DNA from: a virus
Lineage: Duplodnaviria > Heunggongvirae > Uroviricota > Caudoviricetes
Length of the DNA: 50,087 nt
IMG/VR virus record: IMGVR_UViG_2529292836_000016
Direction: 5' to 3' (one strand)
The translations under genes were made by a program, and so were the position numbers. This document shows positions 7,189 through 40,515 of this stretch, one piece after another. The notes under the pieces are model-generated. The model made no database searches. It saw nothing but the letters and a program-made list of their open reading frames with translations, and was not told the DNA's origin. The number at the start of each line of letters is the position of its first letter. Within the stretch, counting starts at the first letter, position 1.

Positions 7189-8241
7189 TTAGCTGTCGGC
7201 GAACTTCAGGCCAGTGACCATCGCGCACTTGCCATAGTCTTCAACGACATAAGCGTCATTGATGGACTGGTAGGTGGCGATGCGGTTGTATTCCGGCTCG
7301 TCTTTCATCAGGCGACGCATTGTTCCTTTCTGCCAGTAAATTGACAGGTTGTTGAACGAGGTGATCAGCATCGTTGCATCCGGGAAGAACGGCGCAAGGA
7401 ATACATCCAGCCCGCCAATGGCGCGCGATGACAGGATGAGCTGTCCGGCAAGTAATTCCGCATTGGGATTCTGGCCGCTGATGCTGTTCAGCACGGGCAG
7501 ACGCAGCGAGTTAAACAGGTTGCGCCCCATAATCACCACGAGGTCGTCAGCTTCCTTGTGCCATTCATCCAGCAGGGATGAGCGCGCGTCCTGTACCAGT
7601 GCATCAGCGTTCGCATATTTACCCGCGTGCGCCACGGTGTTGTCCATGTTGCGGGAGGTCAGCGTTACATCATTCATAACGCGCTCGCTGGCGTCGGTTC
7701 TGATGTGCTCCAGCCATCCCACGTTAACGTCCTGAAGCAGCTTGTTAGTGCTGAAGTTGGACTCATCCGCGTGAGACGTGCCGTTGAAACCGATCATGAT
7801 GCGGTCAAGCGCCACCTGCCGGGCAATCTGTGTGCTGACGCGGGACTGAAAATCAGGGTGTGCCGCCCAGGCATCAAGCTGCGGATACGAAATAAACGTG
7901 TCGTAGTTCACCTGTTCGCACTGGTATTTGCGGTTTTTCAGATCAACCACGTTATTCGGGTTACGGCGTTTTGTGCCGTCATAACTGGTATTCGTGCGCG
8001 CAATCGGCCCGGTGGTGTCCAGGAGGATTTTTTCGCCTTTCTGGTCAGTCACACCGAACACGTTAATTTTTTTTGTAAATTCAGTGCTCTCCTTTACTGC
8101 GTTTTCAAAACGCTGCTGCACCGAGGGTTCCACGGTAAATCGCGATACCAGTGCAGATACCGGGATATTGTTAAGCGACGCCTGCTGCGCCATATAGCAA
8201 CCCAGCTTGTTGCGGGTAATATCTGACATCACCAGATTCAT
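7189..8241 (-). CDS. N: Major capsid protein gpN-like
   Basis: 350 aa; position O-N-M. Confidence 0.85.
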   Translation of the reverse strand: MNLVMSDITRNKLGCYMAQQASLNNIPVSALVSRFTVEPSVQQRFENAVKESTEFTKKINVFGVTDQKGEKILLDTTGPIARTNTSYDGTKRRNPNNVVDLKNRKYQCEQVNYDTFISYPQLDAWAAHPDFQSRVSTQIARQVALDRIMIGFNGTSHADESNFSTNKLLQDVNVGWLEHIRTDASERVMNDVTLTSRNMDNTVAHAGKYANADALVQDARSSLLDEWHKEADDLVVIMGRNLFNSLRLPVLNSISGQNPNAELLAGQLILSSRAIGGLDVFLAPFFPDATMLITSFNNLSIYWQKGTMRRLMKDEPEYNRIATYQSINDAYVVEDYGKCAMVTGLKFADS

Positions 8242-8263
8242 AAAAATTTGCTCCTTTGTCTTA

Positions 8264-9100
8264 TCAGAAGTCAGCCAGCTGGTCGGAGGCTGCGCCCGTT
8301 GCGGTGAAGCGGTTCTGCGGATCGCCGTCCTGCGTGCGCAGTTTTTCCTTCAGTGCTGTCAGCTCTGTGGTCAGTGACGTGATTTTCTGGCGGTCCTGCT
8401 GATGGCGGGTTTCCAGCACATTAAAACGGTCGATAATGTCGGCCTGTGACGTTGCGACGCCTTCCACCGCTTCCTGAATACGGGAGAAACTGGCGTCATC
8501 CGCTTTGCGGCCATGACCAATAATCCCCATTACGCGGTTAAACCACTGGGTGCCTTCTTCCTGGCGTTGTTCTGCCATTTCGATGATTTCAGACTCGATG
8601 GCTTCGGAAATGAGCGGTGCTTCACCCTGGACACTGTTGAACGTCATCACCGCCTGACGTTGCTGTGCCGTGAATTTCAGGCGCTCAGTGCCCAGGCTTG
8701 CCGGGGTGTCGGTCATCGCCAGCCCGACCAGATAGGCGCGCCCGTTAACGGAGAACTGCGGGTGCAGTTCGATACTGGAATAGATTTTCTTGCCGTCCGC
8801 GACAAGCTGCTTCATGCGCTCGGTCGGTTCGATTTCTGCATACAGCGCAGTACGTCCGGCCAGCGGACCTTCCGTAATGTCTTCCGTACTCAGTGCGGTG
8901 ACATCGCCCATTGCGGAAAATTCGCTTGACGGGCATGGCGAGAGATAGTGCTCAACGTTCACGCGGGCAGCGTAAACATCCGGGTTGAAGTTCTCGGCGG
9001 CTTCACGCAGATGCACCGGACTGATTTCACGGCCATCAACAGTTGATCCGGAGACAGCCACGCGAAACTTTTTGCGGAATGTCTTTTTTTCATTAGCCAT
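8264..9100 (-). CDS. O: Capsid scaffolding protein gpO-like
   Basis: Track ORF 8264..9133 trimmed to ATG 'MANEKKTFRKKFRVAVSG...' with a GAGGGG RBS; divergent from P as in P2. Confidence 0.8.
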   Translation of the reverse strand: MANEKKTFRKKFRVAVSGSTVDGREISPVHLREAAENFNPDVYAARVNVEHYLSPCPSSEFSAMGDVTALSTEDITEGPLAGRTALYAEIEPTERMKQLVADGKKIYSSIELHPQFSVNGRAYLVGLAMTDTPASLGTERLKFTAQQRQAVMTFNSVQGEAPLISEAIESEIIEMAEQRQEEGTQWFNRVMGIIGHGRKADDASFSRIQEAVEGVATSQADIIDRFNVLETRHQQDRQKITSLTTELTALKEKLRTQDGDPQNRFTATGAASDQLADF

Positions 9101-9133
9101 AGTTTTTGCCCCTCTGACTGGTTCTTCAGTCAT

Positions 9134-9254
9134 GATGGCAAAGCGTAACAGGCTGATACAAAGGGCTTTTGTTGTAAGAAAACGGCCAGAACAGGGGGTT
9201 AAGGAGAACGGTTTCGCGCGCGGGTAATCTTCCTGTAATTACTCAGGGGGAGCA
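9134..9254. promoter_or_regulatory. Divergent late-promoter region between O and P
   Basis: 121-bp intergenic region separating divergently transcribed capsid and terminase operons; contains TGT...ACA dyad-like elements. Positional inference only. Confidence 0.3.
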
Positions 9255-11006
9255 ATGATTCAGGACGCTTTTGTGCGCCAGCGTGCGCGGCAACTTTACT
9301 GGCAGGGTTATCCGCCCGCAGAAATATCACGTCTGATGGGAATAAACCCGAACACGATTTATGCGTGGAAAAAACGCGACCAGTGGGATGAAACGCCACC
9401 CGTGCAGCGTGTCACGCAGTCCATCGATGCGCGCCTCATCCAGCTTACTGAAAAACAGAATAAAACAGGTGGTGACTTTAAGGAAATAGACCTGCTGACC
9501 CGGCAGCTTAAAAAACTGCATGATGGCCAGCCGGATGCGACGGCCACAGGAAAGAAAGGCCGGGCGAAAAAACTTAAAAATCATTTCACGCCGGAGCAGA
9601 TTGCCGCACTGCGGGAAAAAATCATCAGCAGGCTGGAGTGGCATCAGCGGGGCTGGTTTGACTCCCTGACCCTTTGCAGTGAAGCCGGGATACGTAACAG
9701 GATGATCCTGAAATCCCGACAGATTGGGGCGACCTGGTATTTTGCACAGGAAGCACTGCTGATGGCGCTGCGTGACGATGTGGCACAACCTTACCAGCGT
9801 AACCAGATTTTTTTGTCTGCGTCGCGTCGTCAGGCGTTCCAGTTTAAAAGCATTATTCAGAAGGCCGCGGCTGAAGTTGATGTGGAGCTGAAAGGGGGCG
9901 ATAAAATCATCCTCTCCAACGGCGCAGAACTGCATTTTCTCGGTACTTCTGCTGCGACGGCACAGTCCTACACAGGTAATTTTTATTTTGATGAATTTTT
10001 CTGGGTCAGTCGCTTTGCTGAACTGCGCAAGGTGGCTGGCGCTATGGCAACCCTCAGCGGACTGCGGCGCACCTACTTCTCCACGCCATCCACCGAAACG
10101 CACGAGGCATACGTCTATTGGAACGGCGACCGCTGGAACGAGAAAAAGGCCGCGCATAAACGCCAGCGTTTTTCTGTGGACTGGAAAACGCTGCATAACG
10201 GACTTATCTGCCCCGACCGGACGTGGCGGCAAATTGTCACGCTGGAAGATGTGGTTAATCACGGCTGGAAACACACCGATATTGATGAAATTCGTGATGA
10301 AAACACCGAAGACGAGTTCCGCAATCTCTATATGTGTGAGTTTGTCCGCGAAGGGGAATCGGCATTTAACCTGAATATCCTGATTGGCTGCGGTGTTGAT
10401 GGATACGACGACTGGAAAGACTGGAAACCTTTTGCTCCCCGCCCGATGGGGAATCGTCCGGTATGGATTGGGTATGACGCAAACGGCAGCAGTGGAAACG
10501 GCGACAGCGGCGCGGTGTCCGTGGTGGTTCCTCCGGCTGTTCCTGGTGGCCGTTTTCGAACGGTGGAGACGCGACGCGTTCAGGGGCTGGAGTTTGAAGA
10601 ACAGGCCAGAGTCATTGAAGAGTTCACGTGTCGCTACAACGTGGAACACATCGGCATTGATGCGACTGGCGGGCACGGGGATGCCGTTTATCAGATAGTG
10701 AAACGGTTTTTCCCTGCTGCTATTCCGTACACCTTCACGCTGTCATCAAAACGGTCGCTGGTACTGAAAATGCTGCAAATAATGCGTGCCGGGCGGTGGG
10801 AATACGATCGTGCCGAACGCGAGCTGGTCGCGGCCTTTAACGCCGTGCGTAAGGTGAAAACACCGGGCGGCTTTATCACTTACGAAACGGACCGAGCGAG
10901 GGGGATCAGCCACGGCGACCTTGCGTGGGCAACCATGCTTGCTGTCATTAATGAACCGATTGGCGGCGAAGGAGAAAACGAGCGTTTCACGGTTATGGAG
11001 TTCTGA
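9255..11006 (+). CDS. P: Terminase ATPase (large) subunit gpP-like
   Basis: 583 aa; P-Q translational coupling (ATGA overlap at 11003-11008). Confidence 0.85.
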   Translation: MIQDAFVRQRARQLYWQGYPPAEISRLMGINPNTIYAWKKRDQWDETPPVQRVTQSIDARLIQLTEKQNKTGGDFKEIDLLTRQLKKLHDGQPDATATGKKGRAKKLKNHFTPEQIAALREKIISRLEWHQRGWFDSLTLCSEAGIRNRMILKSRQIGATWYFAQEALLMALRDDVAQPYQRNQIFLSASRRQAFQFKSIIQKAAAEVDVELKGGDKIILSNGAELHFLGTSAATAQSYTGNFYFDEFFWVSRFAELRKVAGAMATLSGLRRTYFSTPSTETHEAYVYWNGDRWNEKKAAHKRQRFSVDWKTLHNGLICPDRTWRQIVTLEDVVNHGWKHTDIDEIRDENTEDEFRNLYMCEFVREGESAFNLNILIGCGVDGYDDWKDWKPFAPRPMGNRPVWIGYDANGSSGNGDSGAVSVVVPPAVPGGRFRTVETRRVQGLEFEEQARVIEEFTCRYNVEHIGIDATGGHGDAVYQIVKRFFPAAIPYTFTLSSKRSLVLKMLQIMRAGRWEYDRAERELVAAFNAVRKVKTPGGFITYETDRARGISHGDLAWATMLAVINEPIGGEGENERFTVMEF

Positions 11007-12052
11007 TGAGCAGAAAAAATAAAAAAGTGCGCATGAGTTCACGCATTGATCTCGCTGATGCGCTCAGGAAAGAATCATCGCTCAGTGCATTCACATTTGA
11101 TGGTCCTTATCGCCTGACCGGGCATGACCTGCTGGACAATATGTACTGTGCTGATAACGGGCGGTGGTATGAAACCCCGGTGGACTGGTACGGTCTGGCA
11201 AGAGCTGCCCGGCAAACGTCCTGGCATCAGTCTGCGCTTTACTTTAAGCGCAATGTATTGCTCGGCTGCTATATTCCGCACCCGCTGCTTTCCCGGCAGG
11301 ATTTCTCGGCGCTGGCGCTGGACTGGTTTGTGTTCGGTAACGCATTCCTTGAGCTTCGGAGCAATATGCTCGGCGAACCGCTTAAATTACGGCACGCCCT
11401 GGCGAAATACATGCGACGCGGAAGCGATCTTGAATCATGGTGGTATGTGCAGGATGGCAAGGACGCGTTTCAGTTTCGTCCTGGCAAAGTGTGCCACCTG
11501 ATGAATCCGGATATTAACCAGGAAATCTACGGCATGCCGGAATATCTTGGCGCATTACTCTCGGCCAGCCTTTCTCATTCGGCGGACATGTTCAGAAAAC
11601 TGTACTACGACAACGGATCCCACGCCGGGTGCATCATCTACATCGGTGCAGCGCAGGTAAACCGCGAAAGCATGGACTCCCTGAAAGAAACGCTACAGGG
11701 GGCACGTGGTGGTGGTGCGTTTAAAAACGTGCTCATTCATGCGCCCAACGGGGGCAAAGAGGGGGTGCAAATTTTGCCGTTCCAGCAGATCACCGCAAAG
11801 GATGAGTTCATGAATGTTAAGGCGGCATCCCGTGATGATGTGCTGGCTGCGCACCGCGTTCCGCCGCAACTGATGGGGGCGATGCCGGGCGAAAAAAGTG
11901 CGTTTGGTGATGTGGAGAAGGCCGCGCGGGTTTACGCAATTAACGAGCTGATGCCCGTCATGGAGGCCATGAAGCACATCAATGACTGGCTTGGCGAAGA
12001 GGTGATCCGCTTTAACCCTTACGCACTGTTAGATACCCAGCCCACATCCTGA
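11006..12052 (+). CDS. Q: Portal vertex protein gpQ-like
   Basis: 348 aa; follows P; matches P2 Q in length and position. Confidence 0.85.
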   Translation: MSRKNKKVRMSSRIDLADALRKESSLSAFTFDGPYRLTGHDLLDNMYCADNGRWYETPVDWYGLARAARQTSWHQSALYFKRNVLLGCYIPHPLLSRQDFSALALDWFVFGNAFLELRSNMLGEPLKLRHALAKYMRRGSDLESWWYVQDGKDAFQFRPGKVCHLMNPDINQEIYGMPEYLGALLSASLSHSADMFRKLYYDNGSHAGCIIYIGAAQVNRESMDSLKETLQGARGGGAFKNVLIHAPNGGKEGVQILPFQQITAKDEFMNVKAASRDDVLAAHRVPPQLMGAMPGEKSAFGDVEKAARVYAINELMPVMEAMKHINDWLGEEVIRFNPYALLDTQPTS

Positions 12053-12662: not shown

Positions 12663-13469
12663 ATGAAAGATAACAATCAGAAAAAAATGATATGGCATGT
12701 TGCCTGTGATGAATCTGGCGTTGATGGGCAGCCATTCTACGGATTTGGGAGTCTCTGGATGAGCTATCAGAGGCGCGCTGAACTCACTCGCATGGTACAG
12801 GATTTGAGAAAAAAGCATGGATGCAGTGATGAGCTCAAATGGCAGAAAGCACATTCAAAGCGTAATGCAGCTTTTTATAGCGACGTCATTGATGTGTTTT
12901 TTAGGCACAACTGGATGGCTTTTCACTGTATTATTGTTGAGAAGTCTAAAGTAGAAAAATCATATCATGGTGGGGATTATGATCTTGCAATGCGTAAGCA
13001 TTTTTGCAAGCTTATTGAAACCAAAATAGGTAACGTGATCCAAAGGTGGCCTCATGCGGAATGTGAGTTCCTTATAGAAGTTGATCCCCTGCCATCTCGT
13101 TACAAAAAAGCCGATGAAGAGTTTCACATAATTGCCAACCATTCTCTGGCCCGAAAATATGGGCGCAAGGACATAATTAAACTAGTTGAAACAAAAGACT
13201 CAAAAACATCGGAACATATTCAGCTTGTCGATTTTTTATTAGGGGCTGTAATGTGTGCATATCAAAGGAAAGCCACTTCTCCAGCGAAACTGGCTATGGC
13301 AGAGAAAATCGCTTCTTATCTTGGGTGGGAATCATTACGGCACGATACCTGGCCGACAGAACGAAAATTCAATATCTGGTTGTTTTTTGATAAAAAGAAG
13401 GGGCCAAGAGATATTGAAACGAAAGAGGTTAATTTGCGATATAAATTACCCCCTTTGCGTAAAAAATAG
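12663..13469 (+). CDS. DUF3800-like protein (cargo at the P2 old/tin-equivalent locus)
   Basis: 268 aa; N-terminal 'IWHVACDESGVDGQP' resembles the DUF3800 D-E-S-G signature; markedly lower GC than flanking phage genes; convergent with parMR. Confidence 0.5.
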   Translation: MKDNNQKKMIWHVACDESGVDGQPFYGFGSLWMSYQRRAELTRMVQDLRKKHGCSDELKWQKAHSKRNAAFYSDVIDVFFRHNWMAFHCIIVEKSKVEKSYHGGDYDLAMRKHFCKLIETKIGNVIQRWPHAECEFLIEVDPLPSRYKKADEEFHIIANHSLARKYGRKDIIKLVETKDSKTSEHIQLVDFLLGAVMCAYQRKATSPAKLAMAEKIASYLGWESLRHDTWPTERKFNIWLFFDKKKGPRDIETKEVNLRYKLPPLRKK

Positions 13470-13700
13470 CGCCAACCTCTCAGCTGGCGTGGTTGGAGTC
13501 CCAGTCTGACGACGAAGTTACCAACTAGGCGGTATCAACTTTTGGGGGGCCGCCTCTAAATCCCCAAAACCTTGAAATCTGCGTAAAACATAACGTTGAA
13601 AACGTTTAAATTCAATAAATTTTTCTGTGAATCGGGGCGTCTATATCTGCCCCTCTTAAGTTTAGCTTCACTTCCCCTGGGGATGCTTCACCGTATTGCC

Positions 13701-14012
13701 TTATTCGGGGAATAACGCCCTGATATTTCCGGCCATCTGACTGGTTATCTGTGCGGTTGGTACTGGCTGTGACACGGGGCGTTCTGTCCTGGTTTGTGTC
13801 ACGGATAACGCCTCATCGTCAGCCCATGCAGCTAGTCGGTAAGCCTCTGCTGGATTCATTTTCAGAAGTGCCAGCCCAGCCAGAAAAGCCACGCGTTGGC
13901 CGCTTTTGCGGGCTTCTGGTGTAAGGCTGTCCAGCCAGGCGCATGCTTCGCTTTCGTTCTTGACGGCCGCAGGCTTCAGATAGAAACTTATCCGTCTGGT
14001 TGGTGTCGTCAT
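13701..14012 (-). CDS. parR: ParR-like partition adaptor
   Basis: Trimmed to 'MTTPTRRISFYLKPAAVKNESEACAWLDSLTPEARKSGQRVAFLAGLALL...', resembling plasmid R1 ParR N-terminal RHH region; immediately downstream of parM. Start uncertain. Confidence 0.55.
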   Translation of the reverse strand: MTTPTRRISFYLKPAAVKNESEACAWLDSLTPEARKSGQRVAFLAGLALLKMNPAEAYRLAAWADDEALSVTQTRTERPVSQPVPTAQITSQMAGNIRALFPE

Positions 14013-14016
14013 TGGT

Positions 14017-14976
14017 TTACTCCTTGTCCATTGCGTACAGCCCATTAACCAGAGCAAACTGTGGCACCCCGTCCGCGATGAAAGTCGCATTAACTCCGCA
14101 GGCTTCGCGGATAGCGGGTGCCACAATCTCCGCCCCTCCACCGACAACCATCACCCGCCCGTAACCGGAAAAACCCGCCAGCGCGCGGATCACTCGTTGT
14201 TTCAGTGTCTCCTCCTTTTCACGAATAACCGCCATCAGGCTGTTGTAATGCGCGTCATTGTGAATGTGCTGGCGCAGCCAGGCTTCATCGTGACGGTGCT
14301 CAATAATGGTATTGGCGATGTGGTGACTGGTACGCATACCGTTAGTGGCCATCACCGACAGTACGGCATCGGCCATCAGGGAAACGCCTACGTGTGGATC
14401 GCAAAACACCTGGCTGATACCTGCCAGTTGTCCCTGAACCTTTGCCACATCCAGCGTGGTTCCGCCTAAATCCACAATCAGCAGGGATTCAAACGGACTC
14501 ATGTCAGCCAGTGCCTTAAAGCCAGCCGGAATGGATTCAGGCATAACCCGTACATTACGGATAGTGAATGCTTCGCCGTTCTGGTATTCCACCGGGCGCA
14601 TAACGTTCGCTTTTTTGCGGTTGATGTTGGCCATGTCCGGCTGTGCGTTTGTGTCGAAATACTCGCTCAGTGGCAGGGTGACAACCACATCCACCTCCTG
14701 TGGCGTGATGCCTGATTTGACCAGCGCGTGATGAATGGCAATGACATTCACATCACTGTACTGATATTGCGTGTCAGTCGTCTGGACAAAGCGATCGCTG
14801 ACCGGATCAAAACCATAGCGCACGCTATCAAGCATGTAGTTCGCGGGCTGCGTGCCACCGAACGGCGCAGACCATTCCGACTTGAAGCTGTTCGGGCTGA
14901 TGGCGTTGCGGCGTTCGCCGTTCTCAGTCCATGCCAGCTTGATGTTGGTGGAGCCGTCGTCGATACAAATTTTCAT
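14017..14976 (-). CDS. parM: ParM/StbA-family actin-like segregation ATPase
   Basis: 319 aa; 'ICIDDGSTNIKLAW', 'YSDVNVIAIHHAL', 'VMPESIPAG', 'LIVDLGGTTLD', 'VMVVGGGAE' match ParM (plasmid R1) motifs throughout. Confidence 0.85.
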   Translation of the reverse strand: MKICIDDGSTNIKLAWTENGERRNAISPNSFKSEWSAPFGGTQPANYMLDSVRYGFDPVSDRFVQTTDTQYQYSDVNVIAIHHALVKSGITPQEVDVVVTLPLSEYFDTNAQPDMANINRKKANVMRPVEYQNGEAFTIRNVRVMPESIPAGFKALADMSPFESLLIVDLGGTTLDVAKVQGQLAGISQVFCDPHVGVSLMADAVLSVMATNGMRTSHHIANTIIEHRHDEAWLRQHIHNDAHYNSLMAVIREKEETLKQRVIRALAGFSGYGRVMVVGGGAEIVAPAIREACGVNATFIADGVPQFALVNGLYAMDKE

Positions 14977-15004: not shown

Positions 15005-15118
15005 TCGTTTACGGGATTTTTAAATCCCGTTTTCGCCTGTTTTGTGCGCGCTTCATATATCGCGGCGCGTTTTTTGCTCATTTACGGGATTTGTGAATCC
15101 CGTTTCTGTCTGTTTTTT
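15005..15118. repeat. Two copies of an about 38-bp direct repeat, each with a TTACGGGATTT/AAATCCCGT palindrome
   Basis: Copy 1 about 15007-15045, copy 2 about 15078-15116; located at the parM 5' flank and gene A 3' end. Confidence 0.5.
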
Positions 15119-17875
15119 GTTTCTACTGGTCAGGCCACCCCGCAGCAGGTCTGCTTTGCGGCGGGCGCGTTCAGTTGTTTCACTGATTCTCTGTGCGTGC
15201 TCTGCGTCACGAATGGCGCGCAGCATGTCAGAAAGCACGGTAACGGGGGTTTTCATGGTGTTCTGGTCCTGCTGAAGTGTGGATGCCAGACGTGCGGCGG
15301 CTTCGGGGTCTGATGCCCCCAGCTGTTCCAGATAGCTGGCGACCGGGTTATGGCGGATCTCCGTGCTGCTTACGCCGTGATTACGGCTCAGGTGCTGCCA
15401 GAGCTGCGTGATTCGGCTGTCCGGGCGGGTATCCGGTTTGCGTACAATTTCAAATCCCTGTGGTGCAATGATGCTGCCGTCAACGTACAGGCTGCCGCCC
15501 CGTAACAGGTGCTGCATCTGCTGTTCACCGATATGCAGGCCGAGAGATTCGGCAGATTCCCGCCATTCTTTAGCGAGTAATTCGTGGTTATCAGGCAAAG
15601 GCCGTGGCTGTTTGCGGCTCTGTGTCCAGTTCTGCATTTCATCACTGCTGTTTTTTGCCTGCTTGTCACGCAGCGAACGCATCAGCGCCCGGCGTTCGTG
15701 CCGTTTCAGTGAGCGCATCCATTCGTTCACTTCAACGCCGTCAGGGAGCTGCGGCCACGGTGCTGGCCGTTCTTCCGGCTGTTCTGTCCCGTTGTTGCCT
15801 GTTTCCTGTACACGGGGACAGTTATTGCCACGAGTCCAAGGGGCGGCAGGGCCGCCCTGAAGGTCAAAACCATTTTCGCGGGCGCTGTCTTCCGCTTCCG
15901 GTTTGCGTCTTACCAGCTTCCAGTTATCCGGATGCGTGCACACACGGGAGGATTCCCCGATGAGTGGTGACCAGATCCCGTAAATCTGTACGCTCTGTTC
16001 GCCGTAATCGTTCAGCTCATCTGCGAGGTCGTAGGCGGTGCGAATCAGGTAGTCTTGGCGTGGAACAAGTACGCCGCCCTGTTTCTCTATGTAGGAGGCA
16101 AAACACCCGGCATCAGCGGCAGCGAGCACTGCATCCATTGCGTCATCCTTCAGCCGTTGCGGGCCTTCCGGGTTGCGTGCCATCTGGCTGGCAAGGCGGC
16201 GCAGTTCACGCCACACCTGACGGGAGGGGATGCCAAAGAACTGGAACTGGCGGACCCGGTGAAGGCGCGCCCAGCCGATGGCGCGCTCCACGCTCTCGGC
16301 CATTGATTTTCCGGTTTCGTGGTCAACGCGTGGCTTGCCCGTTTTCGGGTCGATACCATCCACGGCGCGGCTGTCCAGGTTCTTTCCGATGTAGGTGGCG
16401 ATGTAGCTGGTCGGTGTGCCTTTTGAGCCGTCGACGTACTCTGCCTTAAAGCGTGGGGTAATATCATCACCCAGCTCGTGACGATCTTCCTGAATGGCAA
16501 TATCGCGGGTGTGGGACACAATGGTGTCGATTTCTTCCGGATGAGCAAAGACCATCATATGCCAGTGCACGGTGCCGTCATGGTGAGGCTCCACCGTGCG
16601 GATGCCATACCAGCGCAGGCCGTCGCGGTTCAGTTTCTTGCGGACCGCCGCAAAAAACGAGTTAACCAGGTAATCGCTGGAGTCGCGCATAGTGGCCCCG
16701 TTCCATTTGGGATTCGGATGACCGTTCTCCGTTGTTGCGTGGTACTTCGAAGGGGTGGTGACAGTCAGAAACACCGCTCTGTCGCCACGGGCTTCGGCCA
16801 GAAGTTCCAGCCCCTTCATGGTGGCCATCATTTCTGCCTTACGGTGAACCGGGTTACTTACTCCCGCGTAATACACTGTCTCAAGATCAATCGTGAACCC
16901 GTCTTCGTTTTCCAGCATGAAACTTTTCAGGAAATCGCGTGTTTTCTCGCGCTGTGCGCGAAACTCGCTTAACGCATCCTGGCTCAGATAGGGCGATGTT
17001 TTTCTGGAAACCAGACAGGCGGCGCGGAGTTGTTCTTCTCTCCACTCGCAACGTAACAGCCACAGTTTGCGTTTCCACCATTCCGCACAGGTCAGGCGAA
17101 GGATTGCGCCCGGCAGCAGCTCCGTGTCTGGTTCGTTCCTCCGGCCTTTGTCTGTTGTCAGTGCGTCATAATGCGGAGGCATGGCGTGCAGGTGTAACGC
17201 CATGCGGGCCAGCATCTGATACGCCTTCAGCGTTACATCCATGGTCAGCTCGCCATCAGTCGCACCAAAGCCATCGCAGAGTTTTTCGAAGGTGCTGCTG
17301 AACATCGCCGCCGTCATGGTGGCCAGCGTCTGTATCTGGTGTTTGTTGAGCTGCGGCAGGTAAAGCAAATCGTCCAGGCGTTCGCGTCCGGCAAGGGAGC
17401 GATAACCCGGTGTCAGCCAGTGTCCGTCAGTGCGATCCAGACGTTCGAATATTTTGCGCAGGGTTCCGCGTGCATAGCGTTCTGCCTGCCAGCTCTTTTT
17501 GCCTTTCCGGCGATCGACTTCCTGTTTTTTGCGCAGGAAGGAGAGGTGGCGAATAAGCGGATCGCGCAGATAGGACGGCAGCAGGCGCAGCGAGGCCATG
17601 GCTTCATCCACCGCGCCGCGTGCCTGTCTTCTGGCGTCTCCTGCCAGCGTGATGGTTTTGTCCTGTTTTTCCTGTGCGTCCAGGCTTTTATTAATCAGGT
17701 TGCCCAGTGGCGTGGCAGAGAACGCCGCATCAGCCTTTTCCTGTCGGCGCTCGTTCTCTGCCTGGTAGGCATCCAGCCAGGAGGAAAGCGCGGATTCAGG
17801 TGCGGGGATCCCCGTTCCTTCACGCCCCACTGCGTGGCGCGGTTGTTGCCAGTCCCTGATGTACTCTGTCGTCAT
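15053..17875 (-). CDS. A: Replication initiation endonuclease gpA-like (rolling-circle Rep)
   Basis: 940-aa ORF (true start may be internal); 'VEPHHDGTVHWHMMVF' HUH-type motif and 'YIATYIGKN' tyrosine motif typical of P2 A family. Confidence 0.8.
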   Translation of the reverse strand: MTTEYIRDWQQPRHAVGREGTGIPAPESALSSWLDAYQAENERRQEKADAAFSATPLGNLINKSLDAQEKQDKTITLAGDARRQARGAVDEAMASLRLLPSYLRDPLIRHLSFLRKKQEVDRRKGKKSWQAERYARGTLRKIFERLDRTDGHWLTPGYRSLAGRERLDDLLYLPQLNKHQIQTLATMTAAMFSSTFEKLCDGFGATDGELTMDVTLKAYQMLARMALHLHAMPPHYDALTTDKGRRNEPDTELLPGAILRLTCAEWWKRKLWLLRCEWREEQLRAACLVSRKTSPYLSQDALSEFRAQREKTRDFLKSFMLENEDGFTIDLETVYYAGVSNPVHRKAEMMATMKGLELLAEARGDRAVFLTVTTPSKYHATTENGHPNPKWNGATMRDSSDYLVNSFFAAVRKKLNRDGLRWYGIRTVEPHHDGTVHWHMMVFAHPEEIDTIVSHTRDIAIQEDRHELGDDITPRFKAEYVDGSKGTPTSYIATYIGKNLDSRAVDGIDPKTGKPRVDHETGKSMAESVERAIGWARLHRVRQFQFFGIPSRQVWRELRRLASQMARNPEGPQRLKDDAMDAVLAAADAGCFASYIEKQGGVLVPRQDYLIRTAYDLADELNDYGEQSVQIYGIWSPLIGESSRVCTHPDNWKLVRRKPEAEDSARENGFDLQGGPAAPWTRGNNCPRVQETGNNGTEQPEERPAPWPQLPDGVEVNEWMRSLKRHERRALMRSLRDKQAKNSSDEMQNWTQSRKQPRPLPDNHELLAKEWRESAESLGLHIGEQQMQHLLRGGSLYVDGSIIAPQGFEIVRKPDTRPDSRITQLWQHLSRNHGVSSTEIRHNPVASYLEQLGASDPEAAARLASTLQQDQNTMKTPVTVLSDMLRAIRDAEHAQRISETTERARRKADLLRGGLTSRNKKQTETGFTNPVNEQKTRRDI

Positions 17876-17881
17876 ACTGAT

Positions 17882-18247
17882 TTACTGCGTCATACCGTTC
17901 AGGGTGTCACGGCAAACGGCAGCCAGCCGCTGAATTTCCAGCACGGTGTCTTCTGTGTCGGCATAGCGATGTGTGATGCGGATGCTGTCGGCAATCACAT
18001 CGACGATTGCAGAGGATGGGCGCTGGTAAATGCCAATAACGGACGGAGTGCCACCTTCAATGCGGTAAAGCCTGTAATTTCCCTCGTGGCTGTCAATCAT
18101 GTAGCGACCATCAATAACAATCTTTCCGTCAGCGAGCTGCGGTACAGGCAGGGATTTCAGGTACATGTCATAACGTTCACGCACGCGAACGGCAAGATCA
18201 CGCTCTGTGTTGAGCAGGTATTCAAGAAAGTCGTTGGCGAGAATCAT
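17882..18247 (-). CDS. Hypothetical early-operon protein
   Basis: 121-aa ORF ending 6 nt before gene A start. Confidence 0.5.
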   Translation of the reverse strand: MILANDFLEYLLNTERDLAVRVRERYDMYLKSLPVPQLADGKIVIDGRYMIDSHEGNYRLYRIEGGTPSVIGIYQRPSSAIVDVIADSIRITHRYADTEDTVLEIQRLAAVCRDTLNGMTQ

Positions 18248-18319
18248 TGCGGCAATCCTCTTGTTACAGATGTGCGAAGGCCTCCTGCCGCAAGGTGCAG
18301 GAAAGGCCCGGAACAGGAA

Positions 18320-18550
18320 TTAATGGAGTTTGTTTTGCTGCTGGATGAGCTGCTGAAGCTCGCGCAGATCATCCGCCAGATAACTGAAAACAGCGGATGA
18401 GTAGAGGTTTGAAAGTTCGCAGCTACGCTCATGCAGCATATTGATGTGCATGATTTTAGCGACGCGGAATGCGCGGGAAAGTCTGCGGTTGATTTCAGTC
18501 TGGATGTGACGACGCTCCGCGATAGCGCGGTGCTGTTTGCGGTTTGCCAT
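18320..18550 (-). CDS. Hypothetical small basic protein
   Basis: 76-aa ORF with ATG start (MANRKQHRAIAERRH...). Confidence 0.4.
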   Translation of the reverse strand: MANRKQHRAIAERRHIQTEINRRLSRAFRVAKIMHINMLHERSCELSNLYSSAVFSYLADDLRELQQLIQQQNKLH

Positions 18551-18717
18551 GGTGTGGCCTCTTTGGTTGTAAGTTTTGAAAACTCACCATCCAGAGCTGC
18601 GAAACTGTGGGTGGCGAGACGTACGGGGTTCGCAGTACCGGCAACCAAAGAACCCGGCCCGACCGAAGTCGGCCCCGTACGCCCCGCCATAATTCTGACG
18701 CGAAAAAAACGTGGCAA

Positions 18718-18745
18718 TACAGTACGCACAAAAAAACCGCTGGCG
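18718..18745 (-). terminator. Putative intrinsic terminator downstream of the SPFH cassette
   Basis: Stem aaccgc/gcggtt preceded on plus strand by an A-run (U-tract on minus strand); a second hairpin ccggccag...ctggccgg lies at about 18886-18912. Confidence 0.4.
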
Positions 18746-18917
18746 CGGTTGTGCGCTTTGGTTGTCAGCAGGCTGCGAAACCCGGCACCCGTTTTATGAG
18801 GTGCAGCGAAAATGTAACCTGACTGATTGCGGCATGGCAAGCGGTTTTTTTGTGAGAACGGCATACTAAAAAATCCTGATACTGCTCCGGCCAGCGGTTT
18901 GCACTGGCCGGGTGTCA

Positions 18918-19748
18918 TTACTTCACGGGAACGAACGGAACAGCGGTGTTACTGGTCATGTATTGCGGCAGCGTGCCGTTCCATTTGTTGATTGCTTCCA
19001 GCTCCATAACGCCGGGATTCTGGCGCAGAGCTTCGCCGCGTAAACGAATGGCGTCGGCTTCAGCCTGGGCTTTTGTGCGAATGGCATCGGCCTGTCCGGC
19101 AGCTTCTGCGCGCAACATGTTGGCTTCTGCTTCGCGCTGCTTGACTTCCTGTTCGCGTTGCAGGGTTTTCTGGTTTGCCGTGACTTTGGCGTTAATGCTG
19201 TCGATAACGGTTGGCGGATATTCCGGTTTACCGACATAAGAGAGGCTCATGACCTGAATACCGATGGGGGTCATCTCTTCCTGAATATCTTTAAGTGCTG
19301 AATCCAGCAGTTCAGACTTACCACCGTCGATAAACTTATCGGTGGTCATTTTGCTGGCCAGTCGGTTGAGTGCATCGGCGATCTTCTGGCGCAGGTCAGT
19401 GTCGGTAATGTCGTCCACGCCTTTGCGGTAGGTCTGAAACACCGTGGTAACTTTGGATGGATCAACTTTGTAGGCCACGCCGATGTGATAGCCGATGGTT
19501 GTGCCGTCACTCATCTGGAAGTTGAACGGCTCATCGTAACTCTTCATTTGTTTGAAGGTCGGGAAGATGTAACCCTCTGTATTCCAGCCTGTCCAGTAGC
19601 GGCCAACGCCAACCACTTCACCGACGCCTTTGTCGTCGCCCAGTTTGTTGACTTTGATGCCCACATTACCTGGCTCAACGCGATCGCAACCAACCAGCAG
19701 GATGGCGGCAAAAAGCGGGAGAATCTGAAAGAGTCTGAATTTCTTCAT
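18918..19748 (-). CDS. SPFH/band-7 (HflC-like) domain lipoprotein
   Basis: 276 aa; signal peptide with lipobox 'LLVGC'; C-terminal Ala/Glu/Gln-rich coiled coil typical of SPFH proteins. Confidence 0.65.
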   Translation of the reverse strand: MKKFRLFQILPLFAAILLVGCDRVEPGNVGIKVNKLGDDKGVGEVVGVGRYWTGWNTEGYIFPTFKQMKSYDEPFNFQMSDGTTIGYHIGVAYKVDPSKVTTVFQTYRKGVDDITDTDLRQKIADALNRLASKMTTDKFIDGGKSELLDSALKDIQEEMTPIGIQVMSLSYVGKPEYPPTVIDSINAKVTANQKTLQREQEVKQREAEANMLRAEAAGQADAIRTKAQAEADAIRLRGEALRQNPGVMELEAINKWNGTLPQYMTSNTAVPFVPVK

Positions 19749-24063: not shown

Positions 24064-25065
24064 ATGTCGGTTCGTAAGATTCCATCAGGTAAATGGCTTT
24101 GCGAATGTTATCCCTACGGGGCATCGGGAAAACGCATTCGTAAACAGTTTGCGACAAAAAGTGAGGCGCTCTCTTATGAGCGCCGTTTAATGAATAGTAG
24201 AGTTGGAGACGAGTTTCAAGATGGTTCTGGTCCTCGTCTTTCTGAGTTGATTGCTCGTTGGTTTGAGATGTACGGTAAAACCTTGTCCTCTGGTGCAGAG
24301 CGCAAAGTCAAACTTGAGGCGATTTGTTCCAGGCTGGGAGATCCATTTGCTTCGCAGTTTGACAAAAATATGTTTGCTACTTATCGGGAAAGAAGGCTAT
24401 CAGGAGAATGGAATCCCAAGGGGAAGAAAAAACTTAGTGAAGCAACCGTTAATCGCGAGCAGTCATATCTACATGCTGTTTTTGCCGAACTGAAGCGCCT
24501 TGGGGAGTGGTCTGGTGAAAACCCCCTGACTGGTATTCGCAAGTTTCGTGAGGAAGAAAAGGAACTGGCGTTTCTGTATGTAGATGAGATTGAACGCCTT
24601 CTGATTGCGTGTGATGAGTCACGGAATAAAGATTTGGGGGTTGTTGTCCGTATTGGGCTTGCGACTGGTGCTCGGTGGAGTGAAGCAGAAGGATTAAAGC
24701 AATCTCAAGTACTGCCCGGTCGAATCACATTTGTTAAAACTAAAGGAAAGAAGAACCGCACTGTACCGATTTCACCTCAATTGCAGGCTATGCTTCCTAA
24801 AAAACGAGGAGCGCTATTTTCACCATGTTATGAGGCTTTTGACGCTGCAATTAAGAGAGCGAAGATCGAGCTTCCTGATGGGCAATTAACTCATGTGCTA
24901 CGTCACACGTTTGCCAGTCATTTTATGATGCGGGGCGGAAATATTCTTGTGTTGCAAAAAATACTGGGGCATAGCGATATAAAAATGACTATGCGTTATG
25001 CGCATTTTGCTCCAGGTCATTTAGAGGCTGCTGTTGAATTGAACCCTTTTGACAATAGAGGGTAA
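24064..25065 (+). CDS. int: Prophage integrase, tyrosine recombinase
   Basis: 333 aa; 'HVLRHTFASHFMMRGGNILVLQKILGHSDIKMTMRYAHF' carries the catalytic R/H/Y box; adjacent to att. Confidence 0.9.
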   Translation: MSVRKIPSGKWLCECYPYGASGKRIRKQFATKSEALSYERRLMNSRVGDEFQDGSGPRLSELIARWFEMYGKTLSSGAERKVKLEAICSRLGDPFASQFDKNMFATYRERRLSGEWNPKGKKKLSEATVNREQSYLHAVFAELKRLGEWSGENPLTGIRKFREEEKELAFLYVDEIERLLIACDESRNKDLGVVVRIGLATGARWSEAEGLKQSQVLPGRITFVKTKGKKNRTVPISPQLQAMLPKKRGALFSPCYEAFDAAIKRAKIELPDGQLTHVLRHTFASHFMMRGGNILVLQKILGHSDIKMTMRYAHFAPGHLEAAVELNPFDNRG

Positions 25066-36059: not shown

Positions 36060-37196
36060 TCATAGGTTCATTTTTGTGTCATAACTTTCTATGACCTGAG
36101 AAACCACTGCGTGTGATGTCGCTGCATTGTGAAAAGCGTAGCGACGGGTCGCCGTGAGTGAATGGTGATTTAGCAGATGGGAAGCGATTGCAATATCCCC
36201 GGTCGCCTGTAGTACCCGGGTGGCAAAGGTACGGCGCAGGTCATGCATCCGCAGGTTATCAATGTTGGCATCCCGACAAATACGGGCAAAGGTTGCACGC
36301 GGATATGCCAGAGGGCGGGCATTGTCGGTTAGTTGTGGAAAAATGTAAGTTTTGCTGAGCATCAGGTCTTGCTGGCACTCGACAACTGCAATGGCTGGAG
36401 GTGCAAGTGGGCAGGTGAAAGGGTGTCCGGACTTTGTATCAGGCAGTATGAGTTGATGCATATCCGGGTGCCAGTACTCCCATTTCAGGGTACATACCTC
36501 ACCAATACGCATCCCCGTATAAAGAGCAAGCAATATAGAATCAGCTGCCGGTGTTTGCAGCGCTGTTGCCGCGTTAATAAAGCGCGGGATTTCTGTCGCT
36601 GACAGTGTGCGATAGCGAATGTTATTTTCTTTCAGATAGCGGACATGTGTCATCGGGGAATGCGTGATCCATCCAGCACGTACTGCCAGAGAGCATATTT
36701 TGGACAATATTGCGAGGATACGGTTTACTGTTGACGGACGTAATTTTTCCCGTAAGCCAGCAGCATATTGTTCTAGTTCTCCTGCCGTGATGTCGCGAAG
36801 TTGCCGCTTGCCCCAGAACGGGCGAACGTAGAGGTTGAGTTTTGACAACTCTGACTGAGGACTCTTTTTATACAACTGCAAATCCGGTAGCCACAGGTCA
36901 TTGATGGCCTGTTCCACAGTTAATCGACGGGACTGAACCGCAAGACGATTTTTATCAGCAAGCAGTTTCATCACATGCTGACGGGCATCCTCAACGCAGA
37001 GCTGAGGGAACTGACCCAGGGTTTCATATATACGCTGATTGTTTATAGTGGCACGAAAGGCCAGCGTGATCCGATTGGGATACACCAGAGCACGCAGGTT
37101 TTGGCAGTGAATATCACGGTATTCCTGACAACCCGTGAGGGGATGTGGAAGTTGGTGAAGTGATTTGTTGCTGAAACGCAGATCCAGAATAGGCAT
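36060..37196 (-). CDS. Tyrosine recombinase (XerC/D-like)
   Basis: 378 aa; 'LRMHDLRRTFATRVL...ASHLLNHHSLTATRRYAFH' catalytic R-H-R-Y box. Confidence 0.8.
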   Translation of the reverse strand: MPILDLRFSNKSLHQLPHPLTGCQEYRDIHCQNLRALVYPNRITLAFRATINNQRIYETLGQFPQLCVEDARQHVMKLLADKNRLAVQSRRLTVEQAINDLWLPDLQLYKKSPQSELSKLNLYVRPFWGKRQLRDITAGELEQYAAGLREKLRPSTVNRILAILSKICSLAVRAGWITHSPMTHVRYLKENNIRYRTLSATEIPRFINAATALQTPAADSILLALYTGMRIGEVCTLKWEYWHPDMHQLILPDTKSGHPFTCPLAPPAIAVVECQQDLMLSKTYIFPQLTDNARPLAYPRATFARICRDANIDNLRMHDLRRTFATRVLQATGDIAIASHLLNHHSLTATRRYAFHNAATSHAVVSQVIESYDTKMNL

Positions 37197-37339
37197 CGTA
37201 TTTCTCCTGTAAATGACACTGGAAAAATACGATGTGAGGTTATAGTCTGCCAGTTACAGCTTTCACAGTTCATCAGGTGAAAAAACGCAGATTCGGATAT
37301 AATGGCAACACAATTCCATGTCGCCATTATATTAAGAAA

Positions 37340-38470
37340 CTACAGTTTCATGATCTTGTTCGCTATTTTTTCGAAGTAAACCTCATTCTTAAGAAGAGTG
37401 ATATTGTTTGTTTGAACACCCAGACCACTGGAGGTTGACTGGAAGTTGAGTGAACCACTTATCACTGTGGACTTTCCTGATAAAAAGGAAATCAACTCCT
37501 TGGAAGATGGTGCCCACTCAGGGTTTAAGAGTAATGCAATATAGATATATGTCTTACGAAGCAATTGTTCTATATCTTTTTTATGCCCTGTAGTGTTTTG
37601 CTTACCTTTAATGCAAATAGATTTGATTATGAACTCATCAGGGCTGGTTAAAGGCGTTTTAAACTCACTCAGTGATCCATCGTTATGAATGACTTCATAA
37701 GGCAGCATAGATAAAATGATCAATGCAATCATTTTAGGATGATAAAGGTAGTTATCACGAATGATTTTTCCTGCCTTCATTGTATTGAGCGTTGTTTGAA
37801 TAAATACAAAAAGATATTCAGAGCAAAAGTAACAAAACACAAGCCAGGATAGGTCAATGGATGGAATGTTAATATCCTTAGGTAGTTTGTTTAGCCAGTA
37901 TTCAGACTTCAAAAAGGTCCTGATTTCAACAGTATATTCATGCATTTTTGCGCTGAAATCAAGCATTGCTACTTGACCTGATTGTTCCGTAACTGTGTGG
38001 TCTATAAATGTTAGTGTATTGCACATTTTATCCAGCGTGTTTTGAAAACAAGAAAGGAGTTCGGCATTATTATTACCATTAACCGCAGATGAAAGTTCAG
38101 TTTTAATAAATGCATCCAGTAGCATACAGATTTCTTTCGGAATGACATTTTTACGGGATTGCTGTGAATAGAAATGTACTGCCAGTAAATTAAAGGCAGT
38201 GCACTCCTTTTTTAACCATTGTTCGAGCACTGGGACGTGCTGAAAAAAATTGATATGCTTAGCAGTAGATGCTGATGGAGATAGTACATGAAGAATATCT
38301 ACAGCAGGCTTCATTTGCAATATTTGATCGGATTCGGTAGTCGTCATTAGTTCCAGTAATTGCTGTTCAGAAAATAGTTTAGACAGGTGATCAATGTCTT
38401 TTTGGTATTGATTAAGTTTTGTTAAATTCCCCGGTATACGGGTTACATTGTTTTTCATTTTCTCGAACAT
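37340..38470 (-). CDS. Hypothetical protein (AT-rich orphan)
   Basis: 376-aa ORF, very AT-rich; no recognisable motif. Confidence 0.5.
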   Translation of the reverse strand: MFEKMKNNVTRIPGNLTKLNQYQKDIDHLSKLFSEQQLLELMTTTESDQILQMKPAVDILHVLSPSASTAKHINFFQHVPVLEQWLKKECTAFNLLAVHFYSQQSRKNVIPKEICMLLDAFIKTELSSAVNGNNNAELLSCFQNTLDKMCNTLTFIDHTVTEQSGQVAMLDFSAKMHEYTVEIRTFLKSEYWLNKLPKDINIPSIDLSWLVFCYFCSEYLFVFIQTTLNTMKAGKIIRDNYLYHPKMIALIILSMLPYEVIHNDGSLSEFKTPLTSPDEFIIKSICIKGKQNTTGHKKDIEQLLRKTYIYIALLLNPEWAPSSKELISFLSGKSTVISGSLNFQSTSSGLGVQTNNITLLKNEVYFEKIANKIMKL

Positions 38471-38976
38471 AATTTTATCCTCGTTTGAATTATTACACTG
38501 ATTTAAAAAGTAGCATGTCGTGTTAGCGAGGTAATCCTAAAACGTGAATGGCAGCAGGGGCAAGCTTGAATCTGCGTAAGGATATGGCTTGAATTTAATG
38601 GTGTAATCAGTGAGTTAGAGGCTTATAGCCATTTAAATACAATAAGTTATGATAATATATGGCGGGTGTAAATCGGTTAGTTTTTATGGTTAAAATATGA
38701 GCATTGTGAGATTTGAGATATGATGGTTTTTAAATTACATACAAGTTACCCCTGATGATCAGTATTAATACCAGAATGATACATGCGAGCAGCACCCAAT
38801 CCTGTACTATTTATGATGGCTATACAAGGCTGAAACTTTGAGTCGTATGTTGCCAGGAGGATTAATGTCCACAAGGCCCAGATAGAATGATTTCTCAGAT
38901 ATTAAAGTTGAAACTTATTAACTATGTGAGAGGCTGATATTTATTCAGTCTCTCATTTGTTTTTATCGTTTTAAAG

Positions 38977-40212: not shown

Positions 40213-40254
40213 CGTTGCCGATTATGGATCATGTCAGCTCCACACACCAGAACG

Positions 40255-40297
40255 GGTGATATATGGATCATCATTACCCCAACGGCAGTTTTACACC
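40255..40297. repeat. Copy 2 of the about 43-bp imperfect direct repeat
   Basis: 'ggtgatatatggatcatcattaccccaacggcagttttacacc'; pairs with 29468-29510. Confidence 0.6.
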
Positions 40298-40515
40298 ATG
40301 GCTAATATGGATGCTATCTTACTAAGATAATTGGTTTTTAGCGAGTGACGAGCCAGGTTGTGTCAGTCTGTCTCATGTCGATATTACGGGGATGATGCAA
40401 ACCTGAATGCTGCGATATTGGCGTGTCAGGGGAGGCATCTTACGGTATCATTTACCGCAATTTTTAAGATGCAAAGCCCTGCATCGCTAGCTTTTTCTTC
40501 AGACCAGGATGATTC

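Follow-up and report, generated by a model that had tools for sequence, protein, structure and literature searches.

The type II partition system ParMRC of plasmids R1 and NR1 (StbA/StbB) consists of an actin-like ATPase (ParM), an adaptor (ParR) and a cis-acting site (parC), arranged in the order parC-parM-parR. A gene pair of the same family is present at positions 13701-14976 of the 50,087-nt stretch of DNA analyzed here (IMG/VR record IMGVR_UViG_2529292836_000016; hereafter "the window"), which is Escherichia coli chromosome containing an integrated P2-like prophage of the P88 type (genus Xuanwuvirus, Peduoviridae). The phage ParM is 46% identical to R1 ParM over the full length and has all of the ATPase motifs, the N-terminal domain of ParR is homologous to that of R1 ParR, and the gene order is the same, with a cis site (a candidate in the phage) directly upstream of parM. 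The two systems differ in residence, R1 being a low-copy plasmid and the host of the phage cassette an integrating phage. They also differ in ParR, which has 116 residues and a C-terminal KKNAMKLIN in R1 but 103 residues ending in NIRALFPE in the phage, and in the cis site. Ten 11-bp direct iterons flank the promoter in R1, whereas the phage has two 20-bp palindromes and no clear promoter of its own.

The closest plasmid ParM found, at ~52% identity, belongs to the IncI1-type ParMR systems (e.g., pUMNK88_Hly). The IncI1 ParR shares with the phage protein a C-terminal NIxxLFP and a similar beta-strand, but it is 140 residues long, and the region upstream of the plasmid genes consists of an array of T/G-rich repeats that lacks the phage palindrome. 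R1-family ParM proteins are also borne by phages. That of the P1-like phage-plasmid D6 (StbA/ParM) is 48% identical; D6, however, is a 91-kb obligate plasmid prophage in which the protein has an ordinary plasmid partition role. Phage KS14 likewise combines P2-type morphogenesis genes with a partition function (PMC3091744). It has RepB, a ParA (type I) ATPase and a serine recombinase, is without gene A or a tyrosine integrase, and is demonstrably episomal, whereas the phage in the window keeps gene A and the integrase and is integrated.

An actin-like protein and its adaptor in an integrated prophage are known from AlpC and AlpA of prophage CGP3 of Corynebacterium glutamicum. AlpA is a co-transcribed DNA-binding adaptor that binds upstream of its own operon. 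The system works on excised phage circles soon after induction; both proteins are induced early, tether the circular DNA and are required for it to replicate efficiently (PMC4446434). AlpC belongs to another actin-like family (on the phage ParM the Pfam model ALP_N scores 25.2 bits, under its 26.3 cut-off, against 273 bits for StbA_N), and host phylum and phage type differ as well. The function of AlpAC was established by experiment, whereas we infer that of the phage parMR. By analogy, AlpAC appears to be the closest functional analogue of the cassette, not a family relative.

The interval between gene A and portal Q/cos, in which the pair lies, is that of the P2 tin/old locus, the gpA-gpQ hotspot of Rousset 2022 (PMC9122126), who count a partition system among the hotspot "systems". 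In contrast to the rest of the hotspot, parMR is a fixed block abutting gpA, and the variable slot runs from the parR stop onward. Plasmid maintenance of such phages was already suggested, as untested remarks, by Rousset 2022 (PMC9122126) and Pfeifer 2021; no experimental study of P88-type parMR beyond these two speculative remarks was found in the literature. In RefSeq the proteins are labelled "plasmid segregation protein ParM" and "plasmid partitioning/stability family protein", and they are annotated in phage P88, EDL933 and others. The observation of the pair and its plasmid-state interpretation are already known and in print. New here are the boundaries of the module, a two-palindrome candidate centromere with conserved helical phasing, the pattern of selection, the distinction between parMR and the defence slot beside it, and the wider occurrence of parMR in P2-like prophages of Serratia, Enterobacter and Hafnia.

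The ParM/ParR pair and its candidate centromere

The parM gene (14017-14976, minus strand) encodes an actin-fold segregation ATPase of 319 residues, with Pfam matches to StbA_N (8e-82) and to the ParM C-terminal domain (1e-68) and a PHROGs match to phrog_691, "partition protein". It aligns end to end with the sequence of the R1 ParM structure (PDB 1mwk, E 7e-92). An earlier note on the window, made from its letters without database searches, had called a ParM/ParR pair and held that a loss of the ATPase residues would speak against it. When the protein is aligned with plasmid ParMs of the R1 and IncI1 types, five sequences in all, every one of these residues is invariant, namely D6, D7, G8, S9, T10, N11 and K13 of the phosphate-1 loop, the catalytic Glu E147, D169, G171, G172, T173, T174 and D176 of the phosphate-2 loop, and G279-G281 and A282 of the adenosine motif. 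Full-length ParM is encoded by 92 of the 93 parM copies analyzed, which were taken from the window, public records and IMG/VR contigs. Over 70 distinct alleles the ratio of nonsynonymous to synonymous substitution rates (dN/dS) is 0.054 (dS 0.084, dN 0.0045), and third codon positions hold 144 of the 196 segregating sites.

The parM stop is separated by 4 nt from parR (13701-14012, minus strand), which encodes an adaptor of 103 residues with a predicted ribbon-helix-helix-type N-terminal domain (Pfam Plasmid_stab_B, 1.7e-24; phrog_2515). The ATG at 14012 was taken as the start; a mechanically extended open reading frame (ORF) beginning with TTG at 14147 was rejected as the gene. With hhalign, ParR was matched to residues 5-67 of R1 ParR at 97% probability, and the N-terminal domain of the IncI1 ParR was matched likewise; no PDB sequence match was obtained for ParR at E values up to 1. 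An AlphaFold2 monomer model of low confidence (predicted local distance difference test score, pLDDT, 55.7) places helices at residues 20-29, 32-52, 54-61 and 87-100, with a low-confidence stretch without predicted helices at ~62-86 (pLDDT <50 for 66-88).

Conservation within ParR is uneven. The first ~17 residues with the strand RRISFYLKP, the helix AFLAGLAL and the last 8 residues, NIRALFPE, are fixed, and the linker (residues 65-92) is hypervariable; within one allele class the N-terminal part has a ratio of nonsynonymous to synonymous polymorphism of 0.14 and the C-terminal part one of 0.05, against 0.46 in the linker. Such a distribution agrees with the known layout of ParR proteins, in which a flexible linker joins the DNA-binding domain to a C-terminal helix that docks onto ParM. 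The predicted C-terminal helix (87-100) ends in the conserved NIRALFPE, of which NIxxLFP is shared with the IncI1 ParR and not with the R1 C-terminus. ParR is also mosaic, with at least two allele classes at residues 18-42 and many unrelated versions of the linker, and across these alleles ParM remains 98-100% identical and the palindromes unchanged. No co-variation was found between ParR allele classes and palindrome variants. At one locus (L008, ParR at 8001-8312) identity of ParR falls to 52-53% while that of ParM is still 99%. Right after this parR, at 8309-8437, a 42-residue ORF encodes a fragment of ParM (VEVDVVITLPLSEYFDT, approximately residues 93-108), a scar that suggests past recombination at the hotspot edge involving par sequences.

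Given the low dN/dS of parM, the full length of nearly all copies, and the constraint on both ends of ParR while the linker floats, the pair is likely to be functional and under constraint. Type II systems are recognized by an actin-fold ATPase with intact nucleotide-binding and catalytic residues, which ParM provides; by a ParR adaptor encoded directly downstream of parM, which is present according to Pfam and hhalign, with the ribbon-helix-helix fold predicted; by a C-terminal ParR peptide or helix that docks onto ParM, for which the helix ending in NIRALFPE is the candidate; and by a parC array overlapping the promoter, for which the candidate is a pair of 20-bp palindromes with a weak promoter overlap (8 of 12). 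The pair called in the earlier note is genuine and intact, and almost certainly represents a complete R1-family type II partition cassette of actin-like ATPase and adaptor. Judged by the sequences of its two proteins it is a member of this family, with neither the low-copy plasmid residence nor the iteron-array parC of R1. A scan of genome contigs for ParM alone gave 3 near-identical loci. One of these, a 226-kb contig labelled Vagococcus sp. (Firmicutes; NZ_JBQPOM010000071.1), carries a 97% identical ParM with an identical upstream region, most likely as a result of assembly contamination or mislabelling.

The repeats that the earlier note had placed upstream of the pair are real. A 42-nt direct repeat occurs twice (83% identity), each copy with a perfect 20-bp palindrome of the form ACGGGATT-N4-AATCCCGT. 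Repeat 2 (15005-15046; palindrome ACGGGATTTTTAAATCCCGT at 15011-15030) lies in the 76-bp spacer between gpA and parM, ~35 nt ahead of the parM ATG, with a weak -35-like TTTAAA at its centre, and repeat 1 (15078-15119; palindrome ACGGGATTTGTGAATCCCGT at 15084-15103) lies within the last codons of gene A. The palindromes are 73 bp apart, or ~7 helical turns, and this spacing is kept in 83 of 84 loci. A diverged phage of Hafnia has this spacing as well, with other flanking sequences and with the gpA stop in the middle of palindrome 1. Variation is found in the 4-bp centres, and the arms are mostly kept, apart from occasional single-transition variants.

The palindrome occurs just twice in the window and just twice in a complete 34.5-kb phage genome, and in ~1 Mb of related loci all 168 occurrences are at most 200 nt from a parM start. 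It was not found in a par-less sibling prophage (L016), which has lost the palindromes together with parMR, nor in the R1-type and IncI1-type plasmid par loci examined. A function of the palindromes as the origin of gene A was rejected, because this sibling has a gpA that is ~95% identical in nucleotide sequence over the shared part and has no palindrome. The only 7-mers common to all four diverged upstream regions are those of the AAAACGGGA family, which are found at -128 and -55 in the P88 type and at about -122 and (as AAACGGC) about -39 in the Lelliottia/Enterobacter (L099) and Serratia (L100) prophages described below, where the spacing is 83-84 bp or ~8 turns. The strand R(R/K)ISFYLKP is kept in all four diverged ParRs. 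We infer that ParR may recognize an (A)ACGG(G) half-site, the two phased dyads forming a compact candidate parC.

It is unlikely that the palindromes are instead tandem intrinsic terminators or attenuators for plus-strand antisense transcripts coming from the parM side, with the real ParR site elsewhere or reduced to a single operator. Such a function would account for the hairpins they can form on the plus strand (-10 to -11.6 kcal/mol), each followed by a U-rich tail, for the retention of T-rich tails in Hafnia and for the tolerance of single-transition variants in the arms; at the equivalent position the Serratia locus has a short hairpin (GCCGTTTAAACGGC) followed, as read by eye, by a short T-run on the antisense strand. 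Only single transitions were found in the arms, which are uninformative on RNA structure, and no compensatory double changes; it is the identity of the arms that is kept, not pairing. The exact phasing, of 73 bp here and 83-84 bp in the diverged lineages, is better explained by cooperative protein binding, and the palindromes are gained and lost with parMR. In addition, they occupy the site just upstream of parM that holds parC in the R1-type locus included here, a placement of parC that is also known from other type II systems.

The par block and the adjacent cargo slot

The block made up of the 3' part of gpA, parM and parR is present in 1265 of 5426 complete E. coli genomes (~23%; at least 80% coverage of a gpA-parMR query) at 95-97% identity. 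A segregation system in an integrase-bearing prophage had seemed unexpected in the earlier note, a view that does not hold given this frequency and the existing annotation in P88 and EDL933. In the defective P2-like prophage of O157:H7 EDL933 (L017) both par genes are intact. The block occupies 1632 chromosomal and 2 plasmid places in these genomes, with up to 4 copies per genome.

GC content is 0.546 for parM and 0.548 for parR, similar to gpA (0.577) and the portal gene (0.539) and unlike the neighbouring DUF3800 cargo gene (0.405). The GC content of third codon positions is 0.64 for both parM and gpA and 0.62 for the portal gene, against 0.39 for the DUF3800 gene. Given this match in composition, its frequency and its recurrence in diverged P2-like prophages (below), parMR is almost certainly a long-resident accessory module of the replication region of P88-like phages rather than recent cargo. 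A recent transfer from plasmid to phage was rejected: the nearest plasmid ParMs are 46-52% identical, none above 52%, and the composition is native. Nor do these values support the hybrid phage-plasmid ancestry considered in the earlier note, as far as a recent event is meant.

The borders of the block are sharp. Upstream of parM, 76 bp away and on the same strand, is gene A (15053-17875, minus strand), which encodes a P2-type rolling-circle replication endonuclease of 940 residues (Pfam Phage_GPA, 9e-130). The Phage_GPA domain covers residues 179-503 only, and ~440 C-terminal residues have no Pfam assignment. The gpA of P2 itself has 761 residues. The final ~30 codons of gene A are specific to par-bearing phages and are part of the par module; in the par-less sibling, similarity to the window fades out from about 15190 to 15112, within the 3' end of gene A and just upstream of the first repeat. 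On the other side, homology between related phages ends exactly at the parR stop codon. The portal gene follows at a distance of 486 to 4167 bp, with many different arrangements in between; AbiL, Iet, Rmr, PDC-M11, DUF4760 and further cargo are found there in sibling phages. In the window this slot holds a gene for a DUF3800 protein of 268 residues (12663-13469, plus strand; PADLOC PDC-M04A, 2.6e-35; phrog_3732), which is context and outside the par module.

Two properties expected of defence-hotspot cargo, variability between similar phages and similarity to defence proteins, are not those of parMR. Coverage of the query is at least 80% in 1265 of the 1437 matching genomes, with variability only past the parR stop, and PADLOC has no family for ParM or ParR, the match to PDC-M04A being that of the DUF3800 neighbour. 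Thus, parMR is a nearly fixed but dispensable block abutting gene A, and the hypervariable defence slot lies between parR and cos.

The order gpA-parM-parR-cargo-Q-P is also found in P2-like prophages of Serratia (L100) and Lelliottia/Enterobacter (L099). Identities to the window are 46% and 30%, respectively, for gpA, 58% and 53% for ParM, and 39% and 43% for ParR; both ParRs have 133 residues and keep the strand as RKISFYLKP. In the Lelliottia/Enterobacter prophage the slot after parR (7638-10620) contains two large ORFs of 412 and 586 residues, which we suspect from their sequences alone to be a SIR2-like and HerA-like defence pair; beyond these are a further ORF of 412 residues and one of 257 residues that is DNA methyltransferase-like.

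Possible roles in an integrating phage

The minus strand of the gpA-parM spacer contains no sigma-70 promoter match above 8 of 12 and no terminator-like site. The first terminator-like site past gene A comes after parR; it is a hairpin with a T-run at 13460-13489 (minus strand, a consensus match only) that is shared with the convergent DUF3800 gene. Because parM and gene A are on the same strand, 76 bp apart, with no detectable promoter or terminator between them, we propose that parMR is expressed with the early (replication) operon. In P2, gene A belongs to a repressor-controlled early operon.

Under this arrangement the cassette would act on the extrachromosomal circular replicon that exists while the early operon is on, after infection or induction. 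ParR dimers would bind the two phased palindromes upstream of parM and form a small partition complex on phage DNA, the conserved C-terminal helix of ParR would capture the ends of ParM filaments, and ATP-driven polymerization of ParM would move or separate the ParR-bound circles. Replicating circles would be positioned or separated and fewer of them lost before integration or packaging, with no stable plasmid prophage being maintained. We put it at a little short of an even chance that ParR bound to the palindromes couples phage circles to ParM filaments in this manner during expression of the early operon, in a role much like that of AlpAC in CGP3. Among the explanations offered in the earlier note (a plasmid-like replicative state, hybrid ancestry, a repurposed function) a repurposed function is the one we favour. 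A role in replication is supported by the conserved linkage of gpA and parMR across P2-like lineages. The counterpart of the par-bearing EDL933 prophage in the Sakai strain is Sp13, which excises, circularizes and replicates on treatment with mitomycin C (PMC2669165).

Several observations weigh against a transient role of this kind. P2 replicates well without such a system. The block is dispensable, because low-coverage genomes that were inspected match gpA only (H141 and H142, from the 172 of 1437 matching genomes in which less than 80% of the query is covered) and L016 was confirmed to have no parMR. A weak ParR-controlled promoter (TTTAAA-17-ATTAAT) is possible, so that parMR could be on in lysogens. 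Two palindromes are unlike the ten 11-bp direct iterons of an R1-type parC, and on the plus strand, where hairpins are followed by U-runs, they resemble intrinsic terminators for antisense transcripts. Finally, a circular record of 34,461 bp that was deposited as a plasmid (NZ_CP148288.1, L003; pZ1323PEC0009-2), from a host strain outside the set of E. coli genomes used here, comprises an entire P88-like phage, including the integrase gene, cox, gene A, parMR and the structural genes.

This circle favours a dual lifestyle, in which parMRC would allow persistence as a low-copy plasmid, for example when no attB site is free, in alternation with integration. Plasmid maintenance is the canonical task of ParMRC, the proposal was made by Rousset 2022 and Pfeifer 2021, the example of KS14 in Burkholderia proves that a P2-like prophage can be a plasmid (PMC3091744), and phage-plasmid D6 has a ParM of 48% identity. 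We nevertheless consider a dual lifestyle doubtful. The locations of the block in the complete genomes are overwhelmingly chromosomal, the window copy being integrated beside yecA, and ParR was matched by only 7 of 72,556 PLSDB plasmids, among which there is a single free phage circle, of 34.5 kb, that could be excised, induced phage DNA. Of three close PLSDB hits, one has chromosomal housekeeping genes along with the prophage and one is a 1.4-Mb "plasmid" record (uninspected). The integrase is intact, and the sole annotated replication gene is the rolling-circle gene A; no plasmid-type (theta) initiator, as expected of phage-plasmids of the P1, N15, SSU5 and KS14 kinds, is present in the RefSeq annotation of an identical prophage, the early-region ORFs of which were not all scanned with Pfam. 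KS14, by contrast, has exchanged gene A for RepB and ParA and has no tyrosine integrase. Moreover, the up to 4 copies with the same palindrome that coexist in one genome would be incompatible if they were episomal. A plasmid-like state, as raised in the earlier note, is thus not borne out as the main lifestyle of these phages. A 272-kb Salmonella "IncHI2 plasmid" record (NZ_CP110658.1, 99428-139736; L098) carries the chromosomal housekeeping genes ffh, rpsP, trmD, pheA and tyrA beside a P88-like prophage with sopE and IS26, and is either a plasmid that has captured a chromosome segment or a misassembly.

Two further roles would not involve maintenance of the phage as a plasmid. As hotspot cargo, the cassette might serve competition, through partition incompatibility with plasmids or phages that have a related centromere or through another form of defence or exclusion. 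The gpA-Q region is a defence hotspot according to Rousset 2022, the adjacent slot holds PDC-M04A here and AbiL, Iet, Rmr or PDC-M11 in siblings, and the module can be dispensed with. A competitive role is nevertheless quite improbable, as ParM and ParR have no PADLOC match and the module is near fixation, has the composition of the backbone and constantly abuts gpA, the variable slot starting only at the parR stop. Furthermore, the DNA-binding strand of ParR and the palindromes are undiversified, the ParR classes do not track site variants, and the R1-type and IncI1-type loci examined lack the palindrome. The least probable of the explanations considered, and a very unlikely one, is a role in the integrated state, in which ParMRC would separate sister chromosomal loci or would be a silent hitch-hiker linked to gene A. 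It would agree with the overwhelmingly chromosomal location and with the intact genes in the defective EDL933 prophage; a dN/dS of 0.05 over 70 alleles and near-universal intactness, however, are unlike a silent relic, and we know of no precedent for type II systems that segregate chromosomal loci.

The surrounding prophage and the wider meaning of the cassette

The order of genes is tail and head genes, terminase P and portal Q, cos, the DUF3800 gene, parR, parM, gene A, early genes, immunity genes, integrase and host yecA. Terminase P and portal Q are encoded at 9255-12052 (plus strand; portal Q ends at 12052), and the integrase gene (about 24064-25065) adjoins yecA and is intact in the RefSeq annotation of an identical prophage. 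The coordinates of gene A, portal Q and the integrase agree with the cos-proximal position beside gene A, in an integrase-bearing P2-like prophage, that the earlier note had assigned to the pair. Over the 3 kb compared, strains TW10722 and NCCP 13717 are 100% identical to the window.

On the minus strand of the early region, Rfam matches were obtained for a C4 antisense RNA (18607-18694, 87 bits) and isrK (18730-18804, 66 bits), and directly downstream of these RNAs is an ORF of 76 residues for a "derepression protein" (18320-18550, minus strand; Pfam PF25738). This segment (18320-18804) resembles the c4 antirepressor system of P1 or the epsilon system of P4, here within a P2-like prophage, and may be connected with the mitomycin inducibility of Sakai Sp13. 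A mechanical ORF of 224 residues (18244-18918, minus strand) overlaps both RNA matches; RefSeq has only a partial pseudogene there, and the ORF is probably not protein-coding. Past the prophage and the host ara genes, a second integrative island (36060-42039) encodes a tyrosine integrase (36060-37196, minus strand) and contains two ORFs of low GC content (0.34-0.39) and no obvious function, of 376 and 411 residues, as well as an ORF (40516-42039, plus strand) that resembles a type I restriction-modification methylase (HsdM-like); families in this island were assigned by eye.

About a quarter of sequenced E. coli strains carry the cassette in an integrated prophage. If a facultative plasmid state were true instead of the transient role proposed here, P88-like phages would represent a phage-plasmid hybrid that is very common in E. 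coli. More broadly, and more tentatively than for the coupling of circles to filaments itself, small temperate P2-like phages of Enterobacterales may have combined an R1-type actin with a minimal two-palindrome centromere into a phage-owned cytoskeleton that is coupled to the rolling-circle initiator gene A and serves the transient circle only, at establishment or induction, as a Gram-negative counterpart of AlpAC and not for plasmid maintenance. If the cassette does act on a transient circular replicon, phage actin-like cytoskeletons, so far shown for AlpAC of CGP3, would be extended to the best-studied bacterial host, in a phage (P88) that is accessible to genetics and with the ParM family that is understood best.

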